Shown here piece after piece: positions 4,090 through 51,146 of a DNA stretch of 64,000 nucleotides. Made by a program: the position numbers and the translations under genes. The notes under the pieces were generated by a model. That model did not search any database. It was given only the letters and a program-made list of their open reading frames with translations, and was not told where the DNA came from. The stretch's first letter is position 1; the number at the start of each line of letters is the position of its first letter. Source of the DNA: Parcubacteria group bacterium GW2011_GWA2_43_13. GTDB lineage: Bacteria; Patescibacteriota; Patescibacteriia; UBA9629; GWA2-43-13. Location: positions 436-64,435 of the forward strand of contig LCFM01000002.1 in NCBI GenBank assembly GCA_000999025.1, given 5' to 3'.

Positions 4090-4118
4090 GTAGAGACGCC
4101 CCCCTGGGGCGTCTCTAC
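4090..4118. repeat. family-A palindromic element (GTAGAGACG-loop-CGTCTCTAC) between convergent recR and rplU; probable bidirectional terminator hairpin
   Basis: 13-bp stem gtagagacgcccc / ggggcgtctctac around a 3-nt loop. A/T tracts lie on both sides. Confidence 0.6.
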
Positions 4119-6361: not shown

Positions 6362-6430
6362 GTAGAGACGCTCCGGTGGAGCGTCTTTGTCGAATTATTA
6401 TTGAGACGCACCATCGGTGCGTCTCTACAC
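6362..6430. repeat. two tandem family-A palindromic elements (6362..6388 and 6403..6430)
   Basis: gtagagacgctcc-ggt-ggagcgtcttt and gagacgcacc-atc-ggtgcgtctctacac. Confidence 0.6.
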
Positions 6431-7169: not shown

Positions 7170-7226
7170 AGAATGAATACCTCACCCCCCGTCATTCCGC
7201 ATTCAGCTCCAGACGGGGCAGGCCTA

Positions 7227-7333
7227 CCCTCTCCTTATAAAGGAGAGGGAAATTAAAGGGAAACCCTCATTGTAAAGGAGAGGGAATCGCCGATCCCCTC
7301 CTCCTTAATAAGGAGGATCCGCCAGCTGGCGGA
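7227..7333. repeat. cluster of three family-B palindromes (7227..7249, 7264..7284, 7299..7317) plus palindrome GCCAGCTGGCGG
   Basis: ccctctccttataaaggagaggg; ccctcattgtaaaggagaggg; tcctccttaataaggagga. The cgccagctggcg palindrome recurs at about 11957..11972. Confidence 0.6.
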
Positions 7334-7344
7334 GGGAGGAGGTG

Positions 7345-8532
7345 TTAAGAAGATGGAGGAAAAGTAATACGCTTTGAGGCGTGATGAACGAATAAAACAA
7401 AAACACTTGCGACAAGAATAACAATAATAACCAGCCAAATCCATGCGACATTGCGCAACATCAAACCAGCAGTCCCCAAAACAAGCGCAAAAAGATAATA
7501 CACAATACTCACTCGCTTAGCGCTGAATCCCATATCAAGCAGACGCAAATGCATGTGGTTTCTATCCCCTGCAAACGGAGAACGCTTTTCTTTTACCAAT
7601 CGTTTGTAAATAACCACTCCAACATCAATAATCGCAAGCCCCATCACAACCAATGTTATTGCTATTTTTGCCTCACTTAAAATAGCAAGGGTGGCGAGCA
7701 TAAATCCTGCCCACGTACTGCCCCCCTCCCCCAAAAAAATCGAAGCAGGAGAAAAATTAAACACTAAAAACCCAAGCATCACACCCAACAAAATAATACC
7801 CAATAGAGGCGATGTTATCTGACCTAAAAACAACCCTACTATCACTAAAAATCCAGCCCCAATCGCTGTTACCCCGGCAACAAGACCATCAACCCCATCT
7901 AAAAATTTTGTTGTATACACCATGCCTAAAATCCACACAAACGTAATACTATCAGCAGGTAAAGTAAAATAATACGGAATCCCATTGATTCGTGTTATTT
8001 CAAATTTCATCTGCGCAAGTTTAATTATTTCGCTCCCCTCTAATCCATCAATAAACGGATTGGTAATAGCGGAAAGCCCGATCCCGCTTGCGATAACAAT
8101 GGCAATCGCTATGAATGGAAATAAACATTGATGCCACGGCTTGAGATTATATGTATCATCAATCAATCCCCCAATGACCAATACTAACCCTCCCAGCGTC
8201 ATGCCAATAAGATGCTTGCCAACAACTTCATGCTCTCCAATAAACGCAATTGCGATAAAAGAAACAAGAGCAAACGCAACAAAACACGCCAACCCTCCGC
8301 CAAGCGGAATGGGCGTGGTGTGATGTTTTCGTCCGCCACTCGGATGGTCAACAATACGCGCTCTCCTCATGAGCTGACGAGTGCAGTATGTTGCGCACAC
8401 AGACACAAGCAAGGCAGAAATGCCCCAGAGTATAAACATAAGGATTATGGGACTGTCGCCGAATACCATATTTGGCATAAAACCCCAAACTCCGGTAAAT
8501 TTTTTTGAAAATTTTTTCGCTAATGTATCCAC
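7345..8532 (-). CDS. glycosyltransferase family 4 (WecA/TagO/MraY-type polyprenyl-phosphate sugar-phosphate transferase)
   Basis: 395 aa, multi-TM. Motifs RIVDHPSGGRKHHTTPIPLGGGLA and LDGVDGL are diagnostic for this family. More WecA-like than MraY-like. Confidence 0.75.
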   Translation of the reverse strand: MDTLAKKFSKKFTGVWGFMPNMVFGDSPIILMFILWGISALLVSVCATYCTRQLMRRARIVDHPSGGRKHHTTPIPLGGGLACFVAFALVSFIAIAFIGEHEVVGKHLIGMTLGGLVLVIGGLIDDTYNLKPWHQCLFPFIAIAIVIASGIGLSAITNPFIDGLEGSEIIKLAQMKFEITRINGIPYYFTLPADSITFVWILGMVYTTKFLDGVDGLVAGVTAIGAGFLVIVGLFLGQITSPLLGIILLGVMLGFLVFNFSPASIFLGEGGSTWAGFMLATLAILSEAKIAITLVVMGLAIIDVGVVIYKRLVKEKRSPFAGDRNHMHLRLLDMGFSAKRVSIVYYLFALVLGTAGLMLRNVAWIWLVIIVILVASVFVLFVHHASKRITFPPSS

Positions 8533-14901: not shown

Positions 14902-14917
14902 ATTACGAATGAGAGTG

Positions 14918-14995
14918 CGATACTAATACACGGATTCATGCGAATGACGCGAATATTCGTGTCATTCGTGTGCCATTCGTATATTAGCATCGCAT
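14918..14995. repeat. 78-bp repeat, copy A, filling the rplE-rpsZ spacer
   Basis: cgatactaatacacggattcatgcgaatgacgcgaatattcgtgtcattcgtgtgccattcgtatattagcatcgcat. Near-identical to 15893..15969. Starts directly after the rplE stop codon. Confidence 0.8.
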
Positions 14996-15883: not shown

Positions 15884-15892
15884 AGACGAGCG

Positions 15893-15969
15893 CGACACTA
15901 ATACACGGATTCATGCGAATGACGCGAATATTCGTGTCATTCGTGTGTCATTCGTATATTAGCATCGCA
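15893..15969. repeat. 78-bp repeat, copy B, filling the rplN-rplX spacer
   Basis: About 75/78 identical to copy A. Starts at the rplN stop codon. Contains direct and inverted ACGAATGAC units on the mRNA strand. Confidence 0.8.
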
Positions 15970-16341
15970 TTATAATACTTCCGGCGCAAGCGAAATAATT
16001 TTTTGAAACCCCTTTTGCCGAAGTTCGCGGGCAACAGGACCAAAAATACGCGTACCTTTCGGTTCTTTGGTTTTTTGATCAACCACGGCAACCGCATTCT
16101 CATCAAATCGGATTCTCACCCCATTCGCCCGAGTAATTTCTTTTTTTGTCCGCACCACAACAGCATACACAACATCTCCTTTCTTTACAGCAGTATGAGG
16201 AGTTGATTCTTTGATAGCACACGTCACGATATCGCCGATTGTGGCGTATCGCTTTCTATACCCTCCATTCACGCGGATCACCTGAAGTTTCCGCGCGCCT
16301 GTGTTATCTGCAGATTGTACTATTGTGCGTGTTTGAATCAT
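15970..16341 (-). CDS. rplN: 50S ribosomal protein L14
   Basis: 123 aa, starting MIQTRTIV...ADNTGA. Confidence 0.9.
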
Positions 16342-18055: not shown

Positions 18056-18493
18056 TTATTTTTTTCCGCCAGAGGCGATGTGCCCACCTTTGGCTGGAGA
18101 TCCGCCTTTGGCGGAGTTTTTTGTCCGCCGGCTGGCGGATTGTTCTTTGTCCTTATGCACGTCCGGCCCTTCCAATACAAGAGTGATATGAGATGAACGC
18201 TTTCGAAGCGGAGTAGCTCTCCCATGAGCGCGCGGCATCCATCGCGAAAGAGTTTGTCCGTCTTGCGCTGTTGCTATTTTAATCACAAGCATTGCTCGAT
18301 TCATCCCCAAATTATGCTCTGCGTTCGCAATCGCTGATTGGAGTATTTTAAACACAGGACGAGCCGCTTCTTTAGAACTATGCACAAGCTGGGCAAGTGC
18401 GTCTTCTGCCTTCATCTTTCGTATCATAGCCAAAACCAACCGAACTTTTCGGGGAGATATACGAATTTGACGTGCGCTTGCTTTTACTTCCAT
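18056..18493 (-). CDS. rplV: 50S ribosomal protein L22 with a repeat-derived C-terminal tail
   Basis: L22 core begins MEVKASARQIRISPRK. The last ~22 aa (RTKNSAKGGSPAKGGHIASGGKK) are encoded by the repeat at 18062..18125. Confidence 0.9.
   Translation of the reverse strand: MEVKASARQIRISPRKVRLVLAMIRKMKAEDALAQLVHSSKEAARPVFKILQSAIANAEHNLGMNRAMLVIKIATAQDGQTLSRWMPRAHGRATPLRKRSSHITLVLEGPDVHKDKEQSASRRTKNSAKGGSPAKGGHIASGGKK
18062..18125. repeat. family-D ~64-bp palindromic repeat inside the 3' end of rplV
   Basis: About 85% identical to 50632..50694 at the 3' end of nrdR. Contains a ccgccagaggcg ... cgcctttggcgg hairpin. Confidence 0.75.
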
Positions 18494-18515
18494 AGTATAT
18501 TCAAACTCTTGTCTC

Positions 18516-18818
18516 TCATTTTTGAGCAACGGTCTTTGTTTTTGATTCAATCTCTTTTTGTATCTTTCCGCCATGACGAACAAACTTGCGTGTCGGAGCG
18601 AATTCTCCCAAACGATGACCTACCATATCTTCAATAACATACACAGGGACATGAACTTTTCCATTATGAACACCAATGGTCAAACCAACCATCTCCGGAA
18701 TAATCATGCTGTCGCGCGACCATGTTTTTATCGTTGCCTTGTTTCCAGGTTGAGTTGCATGAACTCTCTTAAGAAGCTTTGCGTCAATAAATGGTCCTTT
18801 TTTAATACTGCGTGCCAT
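18516..18818 (-). CDS. rpsS: 30S ribosomal protein S19
   Basis: Starts [12 protein letters not shown]. Confidence 0.9.
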
Positions 18819-18917
18819 ACGTTCAAGTACCAGTTTTCGATCCTCGGTTATCAGTTTTCAAAAAACCGACACCTTCCATCCACCTCTGGCGGAGACAACC
18901 GAAAACTGGATGTATTA

Positions 18918-19724: not shown

Positions 19725-19870
19725 CGTTGTCGGTTTGTATCTTTTTATCGGCATATACCATAATTTTAATCTACGAATATTATCCGAATGCAACGAACAC
19801 TACACATACCATCTGATACATTCATAGATTGGTAGATTCGAATGTCATTCGTAGATTAGAATTGCCCATT

Positions 19871-21535: not shown

Positions 21536-21846
21536 ACAATATAATCCTAATATCCGAATGCACTCGAATGCAATGAGTCCCCTTCGTTCAGAACATGTGT
21601 AGATTCGGATAGTATTCGCAGATTAGGATCGCTGTTTAAAAAAAACATCCCGCCTCAACTCGACGGAAGTGATATCAAACAGCAGTGCTGGTATCTCTGT
21701 CCTTGAATGAGTTGGTCAATTGTAGATTGGGGAAAAAACAACACCTTTCACGGTTCAGGGACGCAGTATGCACTTTCCCCTGCGTGCGCTGAAAAAATAA
21801 TTTTCAGAACGCGCAGAGGAGTTGCATACTAAGACCGAATTGAACC

Positions 21847-24076: not shown

Positions 24077-24270
24077 AAAAAGTCATTAACCCCTTTTGCA
24101 ATACTATAGAAAAAAACCATAGAGCGCAAGCTTTGCAAAAAGAAAAAGAGGTCAGCAGAGCCAACCCCTTTCGCGACAGAACATCCAGCATGACATCAGG
24201 AGGGTTTTCCTCCCAATGTGGGAATACCCAACTAAGAGGGTGGTATTTCATTGGCGACCCATACACAAAA

Positions 24271-24297
24271 AGACGCTCCATTGGAGCGTCTCTACAC
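24271..24297. repeat. family-A palindromic element (degenerate) just downstream of fusA
   Basis: agacgctcc-att-ggagcgtctctacac. Confidence 0.55.
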
Positions 24298-24313
24298 TAT
24301 CATTATACTATTA

Positions 24314-30819: not shown

Positions 30820-30827
30820 ACTAATAT

Positions 30828-30900
30828 CGGGGTGTGGCGCAGCTGGTAGCGCGCATGCATGGGGTGCATGAGGCCGCCCGTTCAAGTCGGGTCACCCCGA
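30828..30900 (+). tRNA. tRNA-Pro (anticodon GGG)
   Basis: Acceptor cggggtg/caccccg, D-stem gcgc/gcgc, anticodon stem catgc/gcatg with loop atggggt (U33, GGG, G37), T-arm gcccg-ttcaagt-cgggt, discriminator A. No encoded CCA. Confidence 0.85.
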
Positions 30901-30962
30901 TACTGCATCTTAACAACACACATACAAAACGCATACAGTGTGATACACTCTAATTATTCATT

Positions 30963-32063: not shown

Positions 32064-32147
32064 GTAGAGACGGGGTTAACCTCGTCTCTATTTTGTTAAC
32101 CTCCCCCTACCCTCTCCTCCACGATGAAGGGGTAGGGGGAGGTTAAC
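32064..32147. repeat. family-A element (32064..32090) followed by a long family-B-like palindrome (32095..32147)
   Basis: gtagagacggggttaacctcgtctcta, then gttaacctccccctaccc...gggtagggggaggttaac. Confidence 0.6.
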
Positions 32148-42213: not shown

Positions 42214-42240
42214 TGAGACGCCCTACCGGGGCGTCTCTAC
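42214..42240. repeat. family-A palindromic element downstream of prfB
   Basis: tgagacgcc-ctaccgg-ggcgtctctac. Confidence 0.6.
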
Positions 42241-47008: not shown

Positions 47009-50000
47009 CTATGAACATCCCAATGAATTGCCACAATTCAAACATTTATAACATGACCCGTTACGCACAGTGATATGACCGCACTGATCGCACGCAGGCG
47101 CGTCGCCCATCATCTCGCTCATATATTTATTCACGCCAGTGGTGTCGCCAAGCGCGGACAACGCCCCAGGCCCGTCTGCTACTGATGATTCATCATAACC
47201 AAATCCAAACGAGGTGCCTGTAGAGACGGGGTTAACCCCGTCTCTACTTTCCACAGGATGATCAATAATATCAAATTGAACATGGCGGTTTAATACTACT
47301 TCATCTTTGCGCAACATGGTTCCCGTTTGCTCCGGCATTACATGAATAAGATCAGTCCGGCCCAAATATTCCATAGCAAGGACTCGAAAAATAAAGTCAA
47401 TCACACTGGTTGCGGTTTTAATATTAGGGTGATCTGTCATGCCGTGCGGCTCGAATCGAGTAAATGAAAACGACTGGATGAGTTTTTCAAGCGGTACGCC
47501 ATACTGAAGCGCGTGAGAAATTGCAATCGCAAAACAATTCATCATACTTCGAAACGCCGCGCCTTCTTTATGCATATCAATAAAAATCTCGCCCAATGTT
47601 CCATCTTCATATTCGCCAGTCCGTAAAAAAATCTTATGCCCACCGACGCGTGATTCCACAGTGATGCCATTGCGTTTTTTAGGCAATGACCGCTTTTCCC
47701 CACGCGTAAGCGCAAGCGGAAGCGGCATGGTCCCAGTCGGGGTATACGAAGGACGATCACCAGTAGGCGCCATTGGCGTGTGAGCTTCTTGTACATCTTC
47801 TTGTTTCGCGATTTCTCCCTGGATGGAGACGCCCCAACGGGGCGTCTCTACAGGTTGTTCATTCTTCTTCTCTTCTATTTTCTGCGCATCCGATTTTGTA
47901 TTAAGAGGTTGCGAAAGTTTTGATCCATCCCGATACAAAGCAATGGATTTGACTCCCCATTCCCATGCTTTGCGGTAGATTTCAGAAATATCCTCAACAG
48001 TGGCTTCATTTGGAAGATTCACTGTTTTGGAAATTGATCCGGAAATAAACGGCTGAACCGATGCCATCATTTTCACATGCGCAATCGGCGCAATATACCG
48101 CTTGCCATTTCCGCATTTATTAGCGCAATCAAATACTGCCAAATCTTCCTCTTTCATTTCCGGCGCGCCTTCTATTGTCATTGTACCGCACACATAATAC
48201 TGGGCTTCTTTAATTTCCTGATCGCCAAATCCCAGCTCTTTCAATAAATTGAATGTTGGAGATGTATACACTGCTTCCGAAATGCCAAGTCGTTTTAATG
48301 TCTCATCTCCAAGAGAAAACCGATTAAACGCAAACGATAACTCAAACACTCCTTTTAATTGTTCTTCGATTTTTGCGATGTCATCAATAGTAAAACCCTT
48401 TGCCACAAGCGTCTCTGTATTGATATGCGGAGCGCCTTCAAGCGTCATCGCACCCACAACGTGCTTCATCATACGGTCAATCTGCAAAGGGGTATAGTTC
48501 AATGCTTCAAGTGCGGGTTGAATTGACTGATTTGCGATTTTAAAATATCCGCCACCTGCAAGTTTTTTAAACTTCACTAATGCAAAATCCGGCTCCACGC
48601 CTGTGGTATCGCAATCCATTAAAAGCCCAATCGTGCCTGTCGGCGCAATCACAGTCGTTTGTGCGTTGCGATAGCCATATTGCTCACCCCATAGCAATGC
48701 CTTATCCCATGCCTCGCGTCCGGCTTTCAGTAAATCATCAGGGCAATACTCCGGTTGAATGGCAACAGGATAAATATCCAGATGCTCATACTCTTCGCGC
48801 GGCACATTGTATGCGGCGCGACGATGGTTCCGTATAACTCGCAACATATCATTTTTATTCAACTCATACTTTGGGAATGAACCAAGAAAACTCGCCATCT
48901 CAGCACTTGTGGCATAAGATTCGCCAGTCAAAATCGCAGTCAAAGCTCCTGCCACGCCCCGTGCTTTATCAGTATCATACGGAATACCAGAAAGCATAAG
49001 CATTGTTCCAAGGTTCGCGTACCCAAGCCCTAAAGTGCGATACGCGTATGATCCTTCGGCAATCTCCTTGCTCGGATACTGCGCCATCAATACACTAATC
49101 TCCAGCACGACCGTCCACATCCGTATCGCATGTTTGTATCCTTCGATATCAAACTTGCGGGTTGTGTAATCGTAAAATTTCACCAAATTGATAGACGCGA
49201 GATTACACGCAGTATCATCCAAAAACATATATTCACTGCATGGATTTGACGCGCGAATGCGACCTGACTGCGGACAGGTATGCCATTCGTTAATCGTATC
49301 ATCGTACTGTACCCCAGGATCTGCGCACGCCCATGCGGCATAACATACCTTCTGCCACATATCTTGCGATTTCACTGTTTTATAAGGTTTCCCGTCAATG
49401 CGGCGAATAAGATTCCAATCGCCATTTGCGTCAATCATGCGCATGAACGTGTGTGGCACACGAACCGAATTATTGGAATTCTGGCCAGATACGGTTGTGT
49501 AGGCCTCGCCTTCAAAATGAGAATCATATCCCGCCGCAATCAAAGCGGCTACTTTTTTCTCTTCTTTTACTTTCCAATTGATAAATTCCTCAATTTCCGG
49601 ATGATCAAGATTCAAACACACCATTTTCGCCGCGCGCCGGGTTGTGCCACCTGATTTGATTGCGCCTGCCGCTCGATCGCCAATCTTTAAAAATGACATC
49701 AGTCCGGATGATGATCCTCCTCCTGATAATGTTTCCCCTACTCCTCTGATATTAGAAAAATTCGTTCCTGTGCCTGACCCGTACTTAAACAGTCGCGACT
49801 CCCTCATCCATAAATCCATAATACCGCCCGGATTCACCAAGTCATCTGTTACAGATAAAATAAAACACGCATGCGGTTGCGGATGCGTATACGCATCCTC
49901 TGACGGTCGTACTTCTCCTGTTTCAGGATCAGGATAATAATGGCCTTGCGCAGGTCCGGTAATACCGTATGCCCACTGGAGTCCGGTATTAAACCATTGC

Positions 50001-50536
50001 GGAGAATTCGGAGCGGCGTACTGACGTATCAGCATAAACGCAAGCTCATCTTCAAAAATTTGCGCATCCTCTGCTGACGCAAAATAGCCGTATTTTTCTC
50101 CCCAATACCTCCAGCATCCTGCAAGACGCGCAACCACCTGGCGCGCGCTTTTCTCCGGCCCCAATACAGACGATCCGTCTTTATCTAATAGGGGATTTCC
50201 ATAGTGATCGTATTGCGGCACTCCTGCTTTACGAAAATATTTTGATACCATAATATCTCCTGCCACTTGAGTCCATTCAGCAGGGATTTCAGCATCCTTC
50301 ATTTCAAACACAACAGATCCGTCAGGATTCGTTATGCGACTTGTTCTTTTTTCGTAGACAACCTCATCTAAAGGATTGCTACCCGGATGAGTAAATCTGC
50401 GAGTAAATCGCATGCCCTTTTCTTTTAATAAATCAGGCACTGCGTATGATGGAATGGTTACTTTTGAGTAATAACCATTCAGCCGCTCAACTTCATGAGC
50501 GACCTTTGAAGAAGGGGAAGAGGATGGGGAGGCCAT
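47009..50536 (-). CDS. nrdJ: class II (adenosylcobalamin-dependent) ribonucleotide reductase NrdJ, 1175 aa
   Basis: RNR 10-strand barrel motifs (NPCSEY, thiyl-radical Cys region) and the class II C-terminal Zn-ribbon CDQCGH...CYKCLNCGN. Two family-A palindromes lie in-frame in its linker regions. Confidence 0.9.
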   Translation of the reverse strand: MASPSSSPSSKVAHEVERLNGYYSKVTIPSYAVPDLLKEKGMRFTRRFTHPGSNPLDEVVYEKRTSRITNPDGSVVFEMKDAEIPAEWTQVAGDIMVSKYFRKAGVPQYDHYGNPLLDKDGSSVLGPEKSARQVVARLAGCWRYWGEKYGYFASAEDAQIFEDELAFMLIRQYAAPNSPQWFNTGLQWAYGITGPAQGHYYPDPETGEVRPSEDAYTHPQPHACFILSVTDDLVNPGGIMDLWMRESRLFKYGSGTGTNFSNIRGVGETLSGGGSSSGLMSFLKIGDRAAGAIKSGGTTRRAAKMVCLNLDHPEIEEFINWKVKEEKKVAALIAAGYDSHFEGEAYTTVSGQNSNNSVRVPHTFMRMIDANGDWNLIRRIDGKPYKTVKSQDMWQKVCYAAWACADPGVQYDDTINEWHTCPQSGRIRASNPCSEYMFLDDTACNLASINLVKFYDYTTRKFDIEGYKHAIRMWTVVLEISVLMAQYPSKEIAEGSYAYRTLGLGYANLGTMLMLSGIPYDTDKARGVAGALTAILTGESYATSAEMASFLGSFPKYELNKNDMLRVIRNHRRAAYNVPREEYEHLDIYPVAIQPEYCPDDLLKAGREAWDKALLWGEQYGYRNAQTTVIAPTGTIGLLMDCDTTGVEPDFALVKFKKLAGGGYFKIANQSIQPALEALNYTPLQIDRMMKHVVGAMTLEGAPHINTETLVAKGFTIDDIAKIEEQLKGVFELSFAFNRFSLGDETLKRLGISEAVYTSPTFNLLKELGFGDQEIKEAQYYVCGTMTIEGAPEMKEEDLAVFDCANKCGNGKRYIAPIAHVKMMASVQPFISGSISKTVNLPNEATVEDISEIYRKAWEWGVKSIALYRDGSKLSQPLNTKSDAQKIEEKKNEQPVETPRWGVSIQGEIAKQEDVQEAHTPMAPTGDRPSYTPTGTMPLPLALTRGEKRSLPKKRNGITVESRVGGHKIFLRTGEYEDGTLGEIFIDMHKEGAAFRSMMNCFAIAISHALQYGVPLEKLIQSFSFTRFEPHGMTDHPNIKTATSVIDFIFRVLAMEYLGRTDLIHVMPEQTGTMLRKDEVVLNRHVQFDIIDHPVESRDGVNPVSTGTSFGFGYDESSVADGPGALSALGDTTGVNKYMSEMMGDAPACDQCGHITVRNGSCYKCLNCGNSLGCS
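47220..47247. repeat. family-A palindrome embedded in-frame in nrdJ (encodes VESRDGVNPVST)
   Basis: gtagagacggggttaaccccgtctctac, a perfect 12-bp stem. Confidence 0.8.
47825..47852. repeat. family-A palindrome embedded in-frame in nrdJ (encodes PVETPRWGVS)
   Basis: ggagacgcccc-aac-ggggcgtctctac. Confidence 0.8.
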
Positions 50537-50585: not shown

Positions 50586-51146
50586 TTATTGGTTTTTTAT
50601 TATTGGTTTTCTGTTATTAACTATTGGGGGGTTCCCACCAAAGGCGCTGTGCCCGCCTCTGGCTGGGGGTCCGCCTTTGGCAGAGTTTTTTGTCATCCGA
50701 GGCATCAATGCGTCTACTTCCTCTTTAAATGTTTCAACATCTGAAAACTGGCGATACACAGAAGCAAATCTGATATAGGCGACCTTATCAAATTTTTTCA
50801 ACTGCCGCATAACAATATCACCAATAGCATCGCTTGGTAACTCTTGCTGGCGCTTTAATTGGATATCGCGCTCAATCGTATGGACTAACGCAGATATATC
50901 TTCTTGGGTGTATGGCCGTTTGTATAACGCGCGCTTTAACCCTGCCTGAAGTTTATCGCGCGAATACGGTTCCCTGCGACCATCGCGCTTTATCACAGCA
51001 AGTCCTAATATTTCGATTTCCTCAACTGTAGAAAAACGGAACGCGCATTTTGTGCATTCACGTCTCCTCCGCACGGTTAATCCGTCAGATGAAACACGAG
51101 AGTCAAGCACGCGAGTTTCTTGATGATGGCACCCAGGACATTGCAT
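50586..51146 (-). CDS. nrdR: transcriptional repressor NrdR with a repeat-derived C-terminal tail
   Basis: Starts MQCPGCHHQETRVLDSR (zinc ribbon) and has an ATP-cone. The tail TKNSAKGGPPARGGHSAFGG... is encoded by the repeat at 50632..50694. Confidence 0.9.
   Translation of the reverse strand: MQCPGCHHQETRVLDSRVSSDGLTVRRRRECTKCAFRFSTVEEIEILGLAVIKRDGRREPYSRDKLQAGLKRALYKRPYTQEDISALVHTIERDIQLKRQQELPSDAIGDIVMRQLKKFDKVAYIRFASVYRQFSDVETFKEEVDALMPRMTKNSAKGGPPARGGHSAFGGNPPIVNNRKPIIKNQ
50632..50694. repeat. family-D repeat at the 3' end of nrdR
   Basis: About 85% identical to 18062..18125. Confidence 0.75.

Follow-up and report, generated by a model that had tools for sequence, protein, structure and literature searches.

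Short palindromic repeats can lie within protein-coding genes. The Rickettsia palindromic elements (RPEs), which comprise RPE-1 to RPE-8 in the account that PMC3733652 gives of Ogata et al. (2000, 2002), are inserted in frame in functional Rickettsia genes, are confined to Rickettsia and end in a CGTC tag (PMC3733652). Repetitive extragenic palindromes (REPs) with GTAG or CGTC tags also lie within known genes of several phyla, frequently at the termini and in replication or repair genes, and some of the N-terminal intragenic cases are annotation artefacts (PMC3733652). Here we describe a 51-nt palindromic element that forms in-frame coding sequence at the 3′ end of each of two unrelated genes, rplV (ribosomal protein L22) and nrdR, of Parcubacteria group bacterium GW2011_GWA2_43_13, which belongs to the Candidate Phyla Radiation (CPR, or Patescibacteria). 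Both genes lie in a 64,000-nt stretch of contig LCFM01000002.1 (positions 436 to 64,435), hereafter the window. We conclude that the repeat is probably a dispersed, REP/RPE-like palindromic DNA element, tolerated where it is, as predicted from the reading frames, translated, rather than a conserved peptide tail.

A repeat finder recovered the two copies as a direct repeat of 68 nt (family D6; 18063-18130 versus 50632-50699 on the + strand) with 84% identity in the same orientation, and pairwise alignment agreed. This bears out the original prediction, made from the letters of the window, of two co-oriented segments about 85% identical. Both host genes are encoded on the minus strand, and both copies are read in frame on it. 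With a 20-nt core pattern (up to 3 mismatches), the window contains two matches, exactly the rplV and nrdR sites, compared to 0.03 expected, and a 42-nt purine/pyrimidine pattern gave the same two matches compared to 0.00 expected. A covariance model trained on 18 copies of the element scored the rplV copy at 73.2 bits (E ~1e-15) and the nrdR copy at 67.1 bits (E ~1e-14) and detected no third complete copy across the 64 kb. RNA folding gave -33.8 kcal/mol for the rplV copy (z = -5.2 versus shuffles) and -30.7 kcal/mol for the nrdR copy (z = -1.4, unexceptional for its composition); the hairpin that had been predicted in each copy thus reflects a real folding potential.

Characterization of the repeat revealed that the element proper occupies 51 nt, or 17 codons, and that the two window copies are identical at 42 of these positions. 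In the rplV copy, the small hairpin u1 (TCCGCCAAAGGCGGA) is joined by a TCT linker to a large hairpin (CCAGCCAAAGGTGG / GCACA / TCGCCTCTGGCGG). The consensus of the 18 copies, TCCGCCAAAGGCGGA-TCC-CCAGCCAGAGGCGGGCAnGGCGCCTCTGGCGGA, consists of the u1 hairpin with its 6-bp stem (TCCGCC-nnn-GGCGGA), a 3-nt linker and a hairpin of ~12 bp with a 7-nt loop. In most copies the outermost hexamers, TCCGCC...GGCGGA, form a terminal inverted repeat that is inseparable from the palindrome itself. When the 18 copies are placed on this structure, 94% of cells are paired and four pairs have changed on both sides, three of them in u1. The u1 variants CCTGCCGAAGGCAGG, CCCCCCTTCGGGGGA and CCCGCC...GGCGGG keep the pairing and alter the amino acids, and compensatory changes in metagenome copies include CCTGCC...GGCAGG and CCCCCC...GGGGG. 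In the metagenome matches, where u1 lay outside the search pattern, its residues vary freely and the stem is mostly kept. The six reading frames translate as SAKGGSPARGGQGASGG, PPKADPQPEAGKAPLA, RQRRIPSQRRARRLWR, SARGALPASGWGSAFGG, PPEAPCPPLAGDPPLA and RQRRLARLWLGIRLWR. No stop codon interrupts any of the six in 17 of the 18 aligned copies, and the copy on contig L037 has a single stop in one frame. We rejected this freedom from stops as a special property because 31% of shuffles of one copy are also stop-free. The window is also enriched in isolated hairpins resembling u1 (TCCGCC-n3-4-GGYGGA), which give 7 strand matches compared to 0.06 expected.

Neither copy falls within a folded domain; the last Pfam-covered residue is 108 in L22 and 135 in NrdR, which places both copies in the tails. 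The C terminus of L22 reads ...RRTKNSAKGGSPAKGGHIASGGKK, with residues 109-145 forming a lineage-specific tail, and that of NrdR reads ...PRMTKNSAKGGPPARGGHSAFGGNPPIVNNRKPIIKNQ; neither tail has a Pfam match. Among the matches listed, all CPR homologues of L22 have different, Lys/Glu-rich tails, and outside this species the tail motif is found in none of the 120 listed L22 matches and none of the 120 listed NrdR matches. The closest listed L22 orthologue (P0002, 73% identity) is element-free and reads ...EGPDAEKQKTKNKKQL..., that is ...EKQKTKNKK..., at the place where the window L22 reads ...EGPDVHKDKEQ-(SASRR)-TKN-(SAKGGSPAKGGHIASGG)-KK before its stop. The closest listed NrdR orthologue (P0122, 83% identity), encoded in the same order of ftsA, ftsZ, nrdR and the ribonucleotide reductase (RNR) gene, is likewise element-free and ends in ...EEVDALMTKNKTQKTKN, with DALMTKNKTQKTKN as its terminal residues. 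The orthologue alignment that the original prediction proposed therefore shows close relatives that lack the tails, not relatives that carry the same tails with dissimilar DNA.

The empty site could be traced in the DNA of nrdR, where the sequences of L039 and L041 align on both sides of an 88-column gap that holds the element (MAFFT, columns 59-146). Since 88 is 3n+1, the ancestral 3′ sequence of nrdR is now in a new frame, which accounts for the extra NPPIVNNRKPIIKNQ before the stop codon. In both genes the nine nucleotides ACAAAAAAC directly precede the element, and since they are already present at the empty sites of both genes, they represent an ancestral flank or target rather than part of the repeat. 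Of the TKNSAKGG tail that had been described as appended to both proteins, the in-frame repeat peptide therefore stands from the serine onward, but TKN is pre-existing flank. At nrdR, ACAAAAAAC borders the element on the left and ACAGAAAAC follows 19 nt beyond it on the right, an arrangement that is only suggestive of a target-site duplication. Coordinates are collected in the table. For rplV, the mechanical open reading frame (ORF), 18056-18583, reaches a TTG at 18583 and overlaps rpsS; all public records start at the ATG at 18493. Peptides of the two tails include NSAKGGSPAK, GGHIASGGK, NSAKGGPPAR and GGHSAFGGNPPIVNNR.

Table. Positions in the window of the host genes, the element and its flanks, and other palindromic repeats.
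Feature	Position	Strand	Remarks
rplV (L22, 145 aa)	18056..18493	-	ATG at 18493, stop at 18056-18058; Pfam Ribosomal_L22 at residues 5-108
51-nt palindromic element, copy 1	18065..18115	-	In frame in rplV; L22 residues S127-G143 (SAKGGSPAKGGHIASGG)
ACAAAAAAC (Thr-Lys-Asn), 5′ of copy 1	18116..18124	-	Also in the element-free L22 orthologue (…KQKTKNKK…)
Solo u1-like hairpin TCCGCCAGCCGGCGGA	18124..18139	-	Inside the L22 tail, encodes SASRR; missing from the tail of the orthologue
Solo u1-like hairpin TCCGCCAGAGGTGGA	18879..18893	-	rplB-rpsS spacer
nrdR (185 aa)	50586..51143	-	Zn ribbon at residues 1-41, ATP-cone at residues 49-135; the rest is tail
51-nt palindromic element, copy 2	50634..50684	-	In frame in nrdR; NrdR residues S154-G170 (SAKGGPPARGGHSAFGG)
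ACAAAAAAC (Thr-Lys-Asn), 5′ of copy 2	50685..50693	-	Also at the empty nrdR site of L039 and L041 (…CTGATGACAAAAAACAAAACA…)
88-nt extra block in nrdR	50615..50702	-	CCTCGGATG, ACAAAAAAC, the 51-nt element and AACCCCCCAATAGTTAATA; exact edges ambiguous in A-rich sequence
Solo perfect palindrome TCCGCCAGCTGGCGGA	7318..7333	.	In the intergenic cluster of small GC-rich hairpins at 7170-7345
GTAG-tagged family, copies	4090-4118, 6403-6425, 24270-24309, 32065-32090, 42215-42237, 47220-47247, 47826-47848		

We determined whether the tails could result from faulty assembly or binning, as with a repeat-induced misjoin or a chimeric contig. Assemblers can be misled by short repeats common to several genomes, and the taxonomic labels of some of the short contigs described below are doubtful (L022, "Nanoarchaeota"; L023, "Gammaproteobacteria"). 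However, an identical protein consisting of L22 plus its tail is encoded on 13 contigs that come from independent ENA, NCBI, JGI and Logan assemblies and from independent samples. One of these is GCA_001818105.1 (MHJS01000021.1, 156 kb) from Candidatus Jacksonbacteria bacterium RIFCSPLOWO2_02_FULL_43_9, a groundwater CPR/Patescibacteria organism. NrdR is present at 99% identity, tail included, in a further assembly. Moreover, gene order is ordinary across both junctions (the S10 operon; ftsA-ftsZ-nrdR-RNR). With 13 independent contigs and normal synteny, the misjoin that had been named as a possible objection did not materialize, and we regard an artefact as practically negligible.

The same element occurs in other genomes. 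We scanned the GTDB species genomes once, with a hybrid pattern spanning segments u1 and u2, and the JGI/ENA metagenome contigs once, with a pattern spanning u2 and u3. As the hybrid patterns combine exact with purine/pyrimidine positions, the catalogue is skewed toward copies that are exact at the fixed bases. The GTDB scan yielded 14 matches, of which six contain the whole element, including the part outside the pattern. These six are on contigs of low or mid GC content: L012 (Saccharibacteria), L018 (Yanofskybacteria), L011 and L014 (bacterial metagenome-assembled genomes), L022 and L023. The other eight (L013, L015-L017, L019-L021 and L024) are high-GC actinobacterial or other sequences that share only a Gly/Ala-codon periodicity, and we rejected them as chance matches because the similarity stops outside the pattern. 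The JGI/ENA scan revealed 13 groundwater contigs with the element, and the covariance model, applied to ~200 kb of other loci, added one further copy, on L032. Copies from other genomes match the window copies at 36-46 of the 51 nt. As the window copies match each other at 42, compared to up to 46 with foreign copies, they are not each other's closest relatives.

Two of the contigs carry unexpected labels. L022 (JAUYPG010000010.1, 7.7 kb, labelled Nanoarchaeota) carries genes for UvrB, Dus and a large Cys/Gly-rich secreted protein, and L023, labelled Gammaproteobacteria, has a GC content of 0.44. Both may be mis-binned CPR contigs; spread across domains is not established and we do not rely on it.

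The catalogue comprises 21 sites, 20 of them independent (L011 and L035 represent one orthologous site). The three C-terminal copies are in L22, NrdR and RpoA. Seven are N-terminal, in S17, L1 (u2/u3 only), L7/L12, GyrA, PilC/T2SS-F, a cytidylyltransferase and Dus (in reverse orientation). Six, at five independent sites, are internal, in PurA (L011 and L035), ThrRS, DnaG (frame 2, within the DNAG_N region), a Mur ligase (reverse orientation, Pro-rich frame) and a ResIII-like protein. The remaining five are intergenic or doubtful: one on L026, between the gene for an ABC ATPase and that for its permease; two on L032, each just downstream of a gene and co-oriented with it; one on L037, 72 nt upstream of a major facilitator superfamily (MFS) gene; and one on L012. 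The hosts PurA, GyrA, Dus, ResIII, T2SS-F, Mur ligase, cytidylyltransferase, DnaG, L1, RpoA and S17 were checked by Pfam or BLASTP, and L7/L12 and ThrRS were named by eye. In-frame copies are thus found in at least 13 protein families, and four of the six frames are used (SAKGGSPARGG, PQPEAGKAPPA, PASGWGSASGG and PPEALCPPLAG). The window's own S17 lacks such an extension and is 51% identical to the element-bearing S17 of Yanofskybacteria. The L014 GyrA ORF (1245 aa), whose element is N-terminal, also contains, as judged by eye, an intein-like insertion after ...GQGNFG (CFTKDT...VHNS).

These results support part of the original prediction and correct another. The idea of a REP-like element read as a coding tail holds up, since the same nucleotide sequence is found elsewhere in unrelated genes and in spacers. 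The proposed preference for gene 3′ ends does not, given the distribution of the 21 sites; further copies, for which a search had been proposed, do exist in other CPR genomes, but most are not at the 3′ ends of ORFs.

Because one sequence occurs in unrelated hosts, at all positions within genes, in both orientations, in several frames and between genes, and because related genes have empty sites, it is likely that the repeat is a dispersed and probably mobile DNA element. It is small, non-autonomous and GC-rich, and is dispersed at low copy number in CPR/Patescibacteria genomes. In the genome studied here the element has inserted independently into the A-rich, Lys/Asn-coding 3′ tails of rplV and nrdR, in both directly after ACAAAAAAC. 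Its length is a multiple of three and it is mostly stop-free, and in the tolerated frame it would encode a flexible peptide of Gly, Ser, Ala and Lys; for these reasons, in the model we favor, insertions would survive where a disordered loop is tolerated, such as termini, linkers and surface loops. The ribosome would simply read through. L22 would gain 17 residues, plus five more from the second mini-hairpin, and NrdR would gain 17 residues and a frame-shifted new C terminus. The effect may be nearly neutral, as the tails of CPR L22 and NrdR are already hypervariable, and the tails would then be by-products of selfish or neutral DNA rather than a shared functional module. Mobilization could be carried out by a transposase acting in trans, as for REPs with their REP-associated tyrosine transposases (RAYTs) or for miniature transposable elements with inverted repeats (MITEs), or could occur by template switching at A-tracts.

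Several observations weigh against a dispersed and tolerated DNA element. We noticed no transposase-like ORF beside any copy, in a survey that covered 64 kb of a ~1-Mb genome and included no genome-wide scan. Copy number is low, with two per 64 kb here and one extra in ~200 kb of other loci. As the pattern scans required exact bases at 14 or more positions, the counts and identities come from a biased sample. The flanks at rplV and the other copies are A/T-rich and show no consistent target-site duplication, and both window insertions have the same 9-nt left flank. Thirteen of the 16 coding copies are in the SAKGGSPARGG... frame and none is in an Arg-rich frame, and 18 of the 21 sites are co-oriented with the host or neighboring gene (counting the doubtful L012 and both PurA sites). 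Filtering at the peptide level could explain the bias in frame and orientation, and so could a function of the peptide or the phase of the target. The orthologous PurA copies (L011:3078-3128 and L035:818-868) are at the same codon and identical at 51 of 51 positions, while the 150-300 nt of flanking coding DNA are 76-86% identical; at ~83% identity, the chance of a perfect match is about 7e-5. Conservation of the PurA element thus exceeds what is expected of junk DNA. Lastly, the similarity across CPR classes implies horizontal spread, and we found no vehicle, with 0 matches among the viral contigs of IMG/VR using three patterns. These unexplained points keep alive a selected RNA or DNA signal and, less likely, a selected peptide.

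Four observations, the PurA identity, the compensatory stem changes, the orientation bias and the insertion beside ACAAAAAAC, leave room for a further interpretation. The element might be an actively spreading, sequence-constrained module that moves horizontally in groundwater between CPR lineages, and possibly also DPANN archaea, and is kept intact by selection or concerted evolution. We consider this unlikely.

Another possibility is that the double hairpin is kept as a signal in RNA or DNA and that its translation is incidental. Possible roles include a stabilizer or processing site at mRNA 3′ ends (between rplV and rpsC, and between nrdR and RNR), an antisense terminator, or a binding site for a CPR protein. 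The perfectly conserved PurA copy within diverged flanks and the compensatory changes in u1 would fit such a role, as would the location of the window copies at cistron ends within operons and of the L032 copies just downstream of co-oriented genes. Nucleotide identity across CPR classes is also high, while the host S17 proteins are only 51% identical. However, the positions are inconsistent, as copies are found in N-terminal and internal coding sequence and both upstream and downstream of genes, and the closest relatives lack the element at the same loci. Although the antisense strand of both window copies scores as a hairpin-plus-T-run terminator, the sense strand lacks a U-run: what comes after the hairpin on the gene strand is an A-run or C-run, which does not make an intrinsic terminator, and terminator-like calls were made on the antisense (+) strand only. 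In a simple scan, these calls fell at 18101-18125 and 50662-50691 (+), where the antisense reads as a GC hairpin followed by GTTTTTTGT, an arrangement that results from insertion of the element immediately 3′ of an A6 run. No Rfam family corresponds to the element; at the gathering threshold the window gave only tRNA, and scans of the two copies by E-value gave chance-level matches (E of at least 0.3). The window copies are also the most degenerate of the set, with the lowest model scores, as expected for decaying insertions. On balance, a signal of this kind is an outside possibility.

Selection could instead act on the peptide. In this case, SAKGGSPA(K/R)GG(H/Q)xA(S/F)GG would be a flexible, RGG-like tail for nucleic acid binding or other interactions that was repeatedly recruited onto information-processing proteins. 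This would account for the predominance of one frame and the disuse of the two Arg-rich frames, and many of the hosts do bind nucleic acids (L22, S17, L1, RpoA, GyrA, DnaG, ThrRS, NrdR and Dus). Several differences in the 3′ half are synonymous in the SAKGG frame, but between the window copies four differences are synonymous and five are non-synonymous. Outside the search pattern, the peptide varies (SAKGG, SAGGG, PPFGG, SVEGG, SSTGG, SIRGG) while the stem is kept, and the use of the same codons across phyla is unlike peptide convergence. The closest listed orthologues lack the tail. A tail under selection, which the original prediction had offered as an option, is unlikely as the main explanation because there are also copies that use other frames, are inverted or lie outside genes (L026, L032 twice, L037, L022, L027 and L029); we think it improbable, more so than a nucleic acid signal. 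A HMMER profile of the two tails had 0 matches at E ≤0.001 among 1.84 billion representatives, a result that is not decisive for a short, low-complexity query, and a word search with the two tails joined (48 aa) found no candidate sharing three 5-residue words and was uninformative. Least probable of the biological explanations, in our judgment very improbable, is that one tail was copied to the other, either through gene conversion or through template switching at microhomologies, without an element family playing any part. At both sites the left flank is ACAAAAAAC and the right flank is A-rich, and the window holds only two copies. Against this, the family is present in many other genomes and genes, and each window copy is closer to some foreign copies than to the other; these comparisons of sequence already refute local duplication for the most part.

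Other repeats are present in the window. A second, unrelated palindromic family, GTAGAGACG(n)CGTCTCTAC, has the GTAG tag typical of RAYT-type REPs, and most of its copies are intergenic. Two copies are in frame in the class II RNR ORF (47009-50536, minus), where they encode PVETPRWGVS and SRDGVNPVST; the former is in a hypervariable linker for which the closest orthologue (L041) has unrelated sequence. An 83-nt repeat with an internal palindrome, CGAATGACGCGAATATTCGTGTCATTCG, is found in spacers of the ribosomal-protein operon at 14913-14995 and 15888-15970 (96% identical), with partial copies at 19836-19865 and 21603-21632. The operon is unusually repeat-interrupted for such a compact genome. 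An intergenic cluster at 7170-7345 (minus) resembles a bacterial interspersed mosaic element (BIME), as small hairpins rich in GC follow one another there in tandem (TCCGCCAGCTGGCGGA, TCCTCCTTATTAAGGAGGA and two CCCTCTCC...GGAGAGGG units, family D3). Finally, ARAGORN identified a tRNA-Pro(GGG) at 30827-30901; the Rfam tRNA model at the gathering threshold gave only tRNA-Lys at 1599-1670.

If our interpretation is correct, translatable selfish palindromic DNA, not adaptation, would be the source of some of the odd lineage-specific tails and loops of CPR ribosomal proteins and regulators. Inserts of 17 residues would contaminate the ribosomal-protein alignments used for CPR phylogenomics and make gene callers stretch ORFs into spacers, and a near-identical 51-mer shared across lineages is a potential cause of chimeric assembly or mis-binning. 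Should the sharing between lineages reflect real horizontal movement, the element could serve as a tracer of DNA exchange among ultra-small groundwater organisms and would point to a mobilizing enzyme. Should the element be an actively spreading module, it would be a structured mobile element of a new class among ultra-small prokaryotes, might be recognized by a single-stranded DNA transposase or by a factor that binds or processes RNA, and would be a systematic source of new termini and loops on essential proteins, among them those of the ribosome.

The element is of a known kind, akin to intragenic REPs and the RPEs of Rickettsia. Both the family and its spread in CPR appear undescribed, as in the full-text literature we found no description of the sequence, of its peptides, or of palindromic elements, MITEs or REPs in CPR/Patescibacteria. 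We also considered an integron attC site, a CRISPR repeat, the initiation-of-mutagenic-homology (IMH) site or cruciform of a diversity-generating retroelement (DGR) and a DNA uptake sequence, and rejected all of these; arrays, a cassette context and a variable/template repeat (VR/TR) pair are lacking, and copies are far too few.

Comparison with REPs and BIMEs reveals clear likenesses. These are GC-rich imperfect palindromes of 20-40 nt, many of which pair to build larger structures (Di Nocera et al. 2013, PMC3733652), and they lie mostly downstream of genes and are sometimes intragenic, including at N and C termini and in replication and repair genes (PMC3733652). In the 51-nt element, u1 together with u2/u3 is reminiscent of a REP dimer, and u1 hairpins also stand alone. 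However, neither end of the consensus TCCGCCAAAGGCGGATCCCCAGCCAGAGGCGGGCAnGGCGCCTCTGGCGGA carries the GTAG or CGTC tag by which REPs are defined (PMC3733652). Full copies are few (two in 64 kb, both intragenic), compared to hundreds in REP-rich genomes, and we saw no RAYT gene and none is known for the element. Like MITEs, of which Correia, ERIC/RU and Nezha are examples, the element is short, non-autonomous and flanked by terminal inverted repeats, and some MITEs have open frames and are intragenic (PMC3184786, PMC10969869, PMC2759123). MITEs are usually 70-300 bp, with terminal inverted repeats matching a parent insertion sequence and clear target-site duplications, whereas this element is 51 nt with a 6-bp terminal inverted repeat.

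Elements of a more distant kind are also found within genes. The GC clusters or "byp" elements of yeast mitochondria, a subject of Lang et al. (PNAS, 2014), are reportedly skipped by translational bypassing between matching take-off and landing codons. The two systems share short, mobile, GC-rich palindromes within protein-coding genes of AT-rich genomes. Unlike byp elements, however, the 51-nt element does not need to be bypassed, as it is stop-free and a multiple of three in length. We considered bypassing through a GGA...GGA pair; nothing requires it, and the pair is only a curiosity.

The closest parallel is provided by the RPEs. In both cases, small palindromes are in frame in unrelated, mostly housekeeping genes of a bacterium with a reduced genome, further copies are intergenic, and the proteins carry extra surface or terminal peptides (here by predicted translation) that their orthologues lack. 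The features by which an RPE is recognized, namely in-frame insertion, absence from orthologues and the existence of non-coding copies, are all found for the 51-nt element. The differences concern length (~100-150 bp for RPE-1 in the account cited above, compared to 51 nt), the lack of a CGTC tag, and an element common to several CPR classes at ~80-90% nucleotide identity. Expression of the decorated protein is also described for RPE-1 in that account, whereas the 51-nt element is known from its sequence. We infer that the element works like an RPE but is not a member of that family, from which its CPR hosts and the missing CGTC end, rather than a comparison of the sequences, set it apart.

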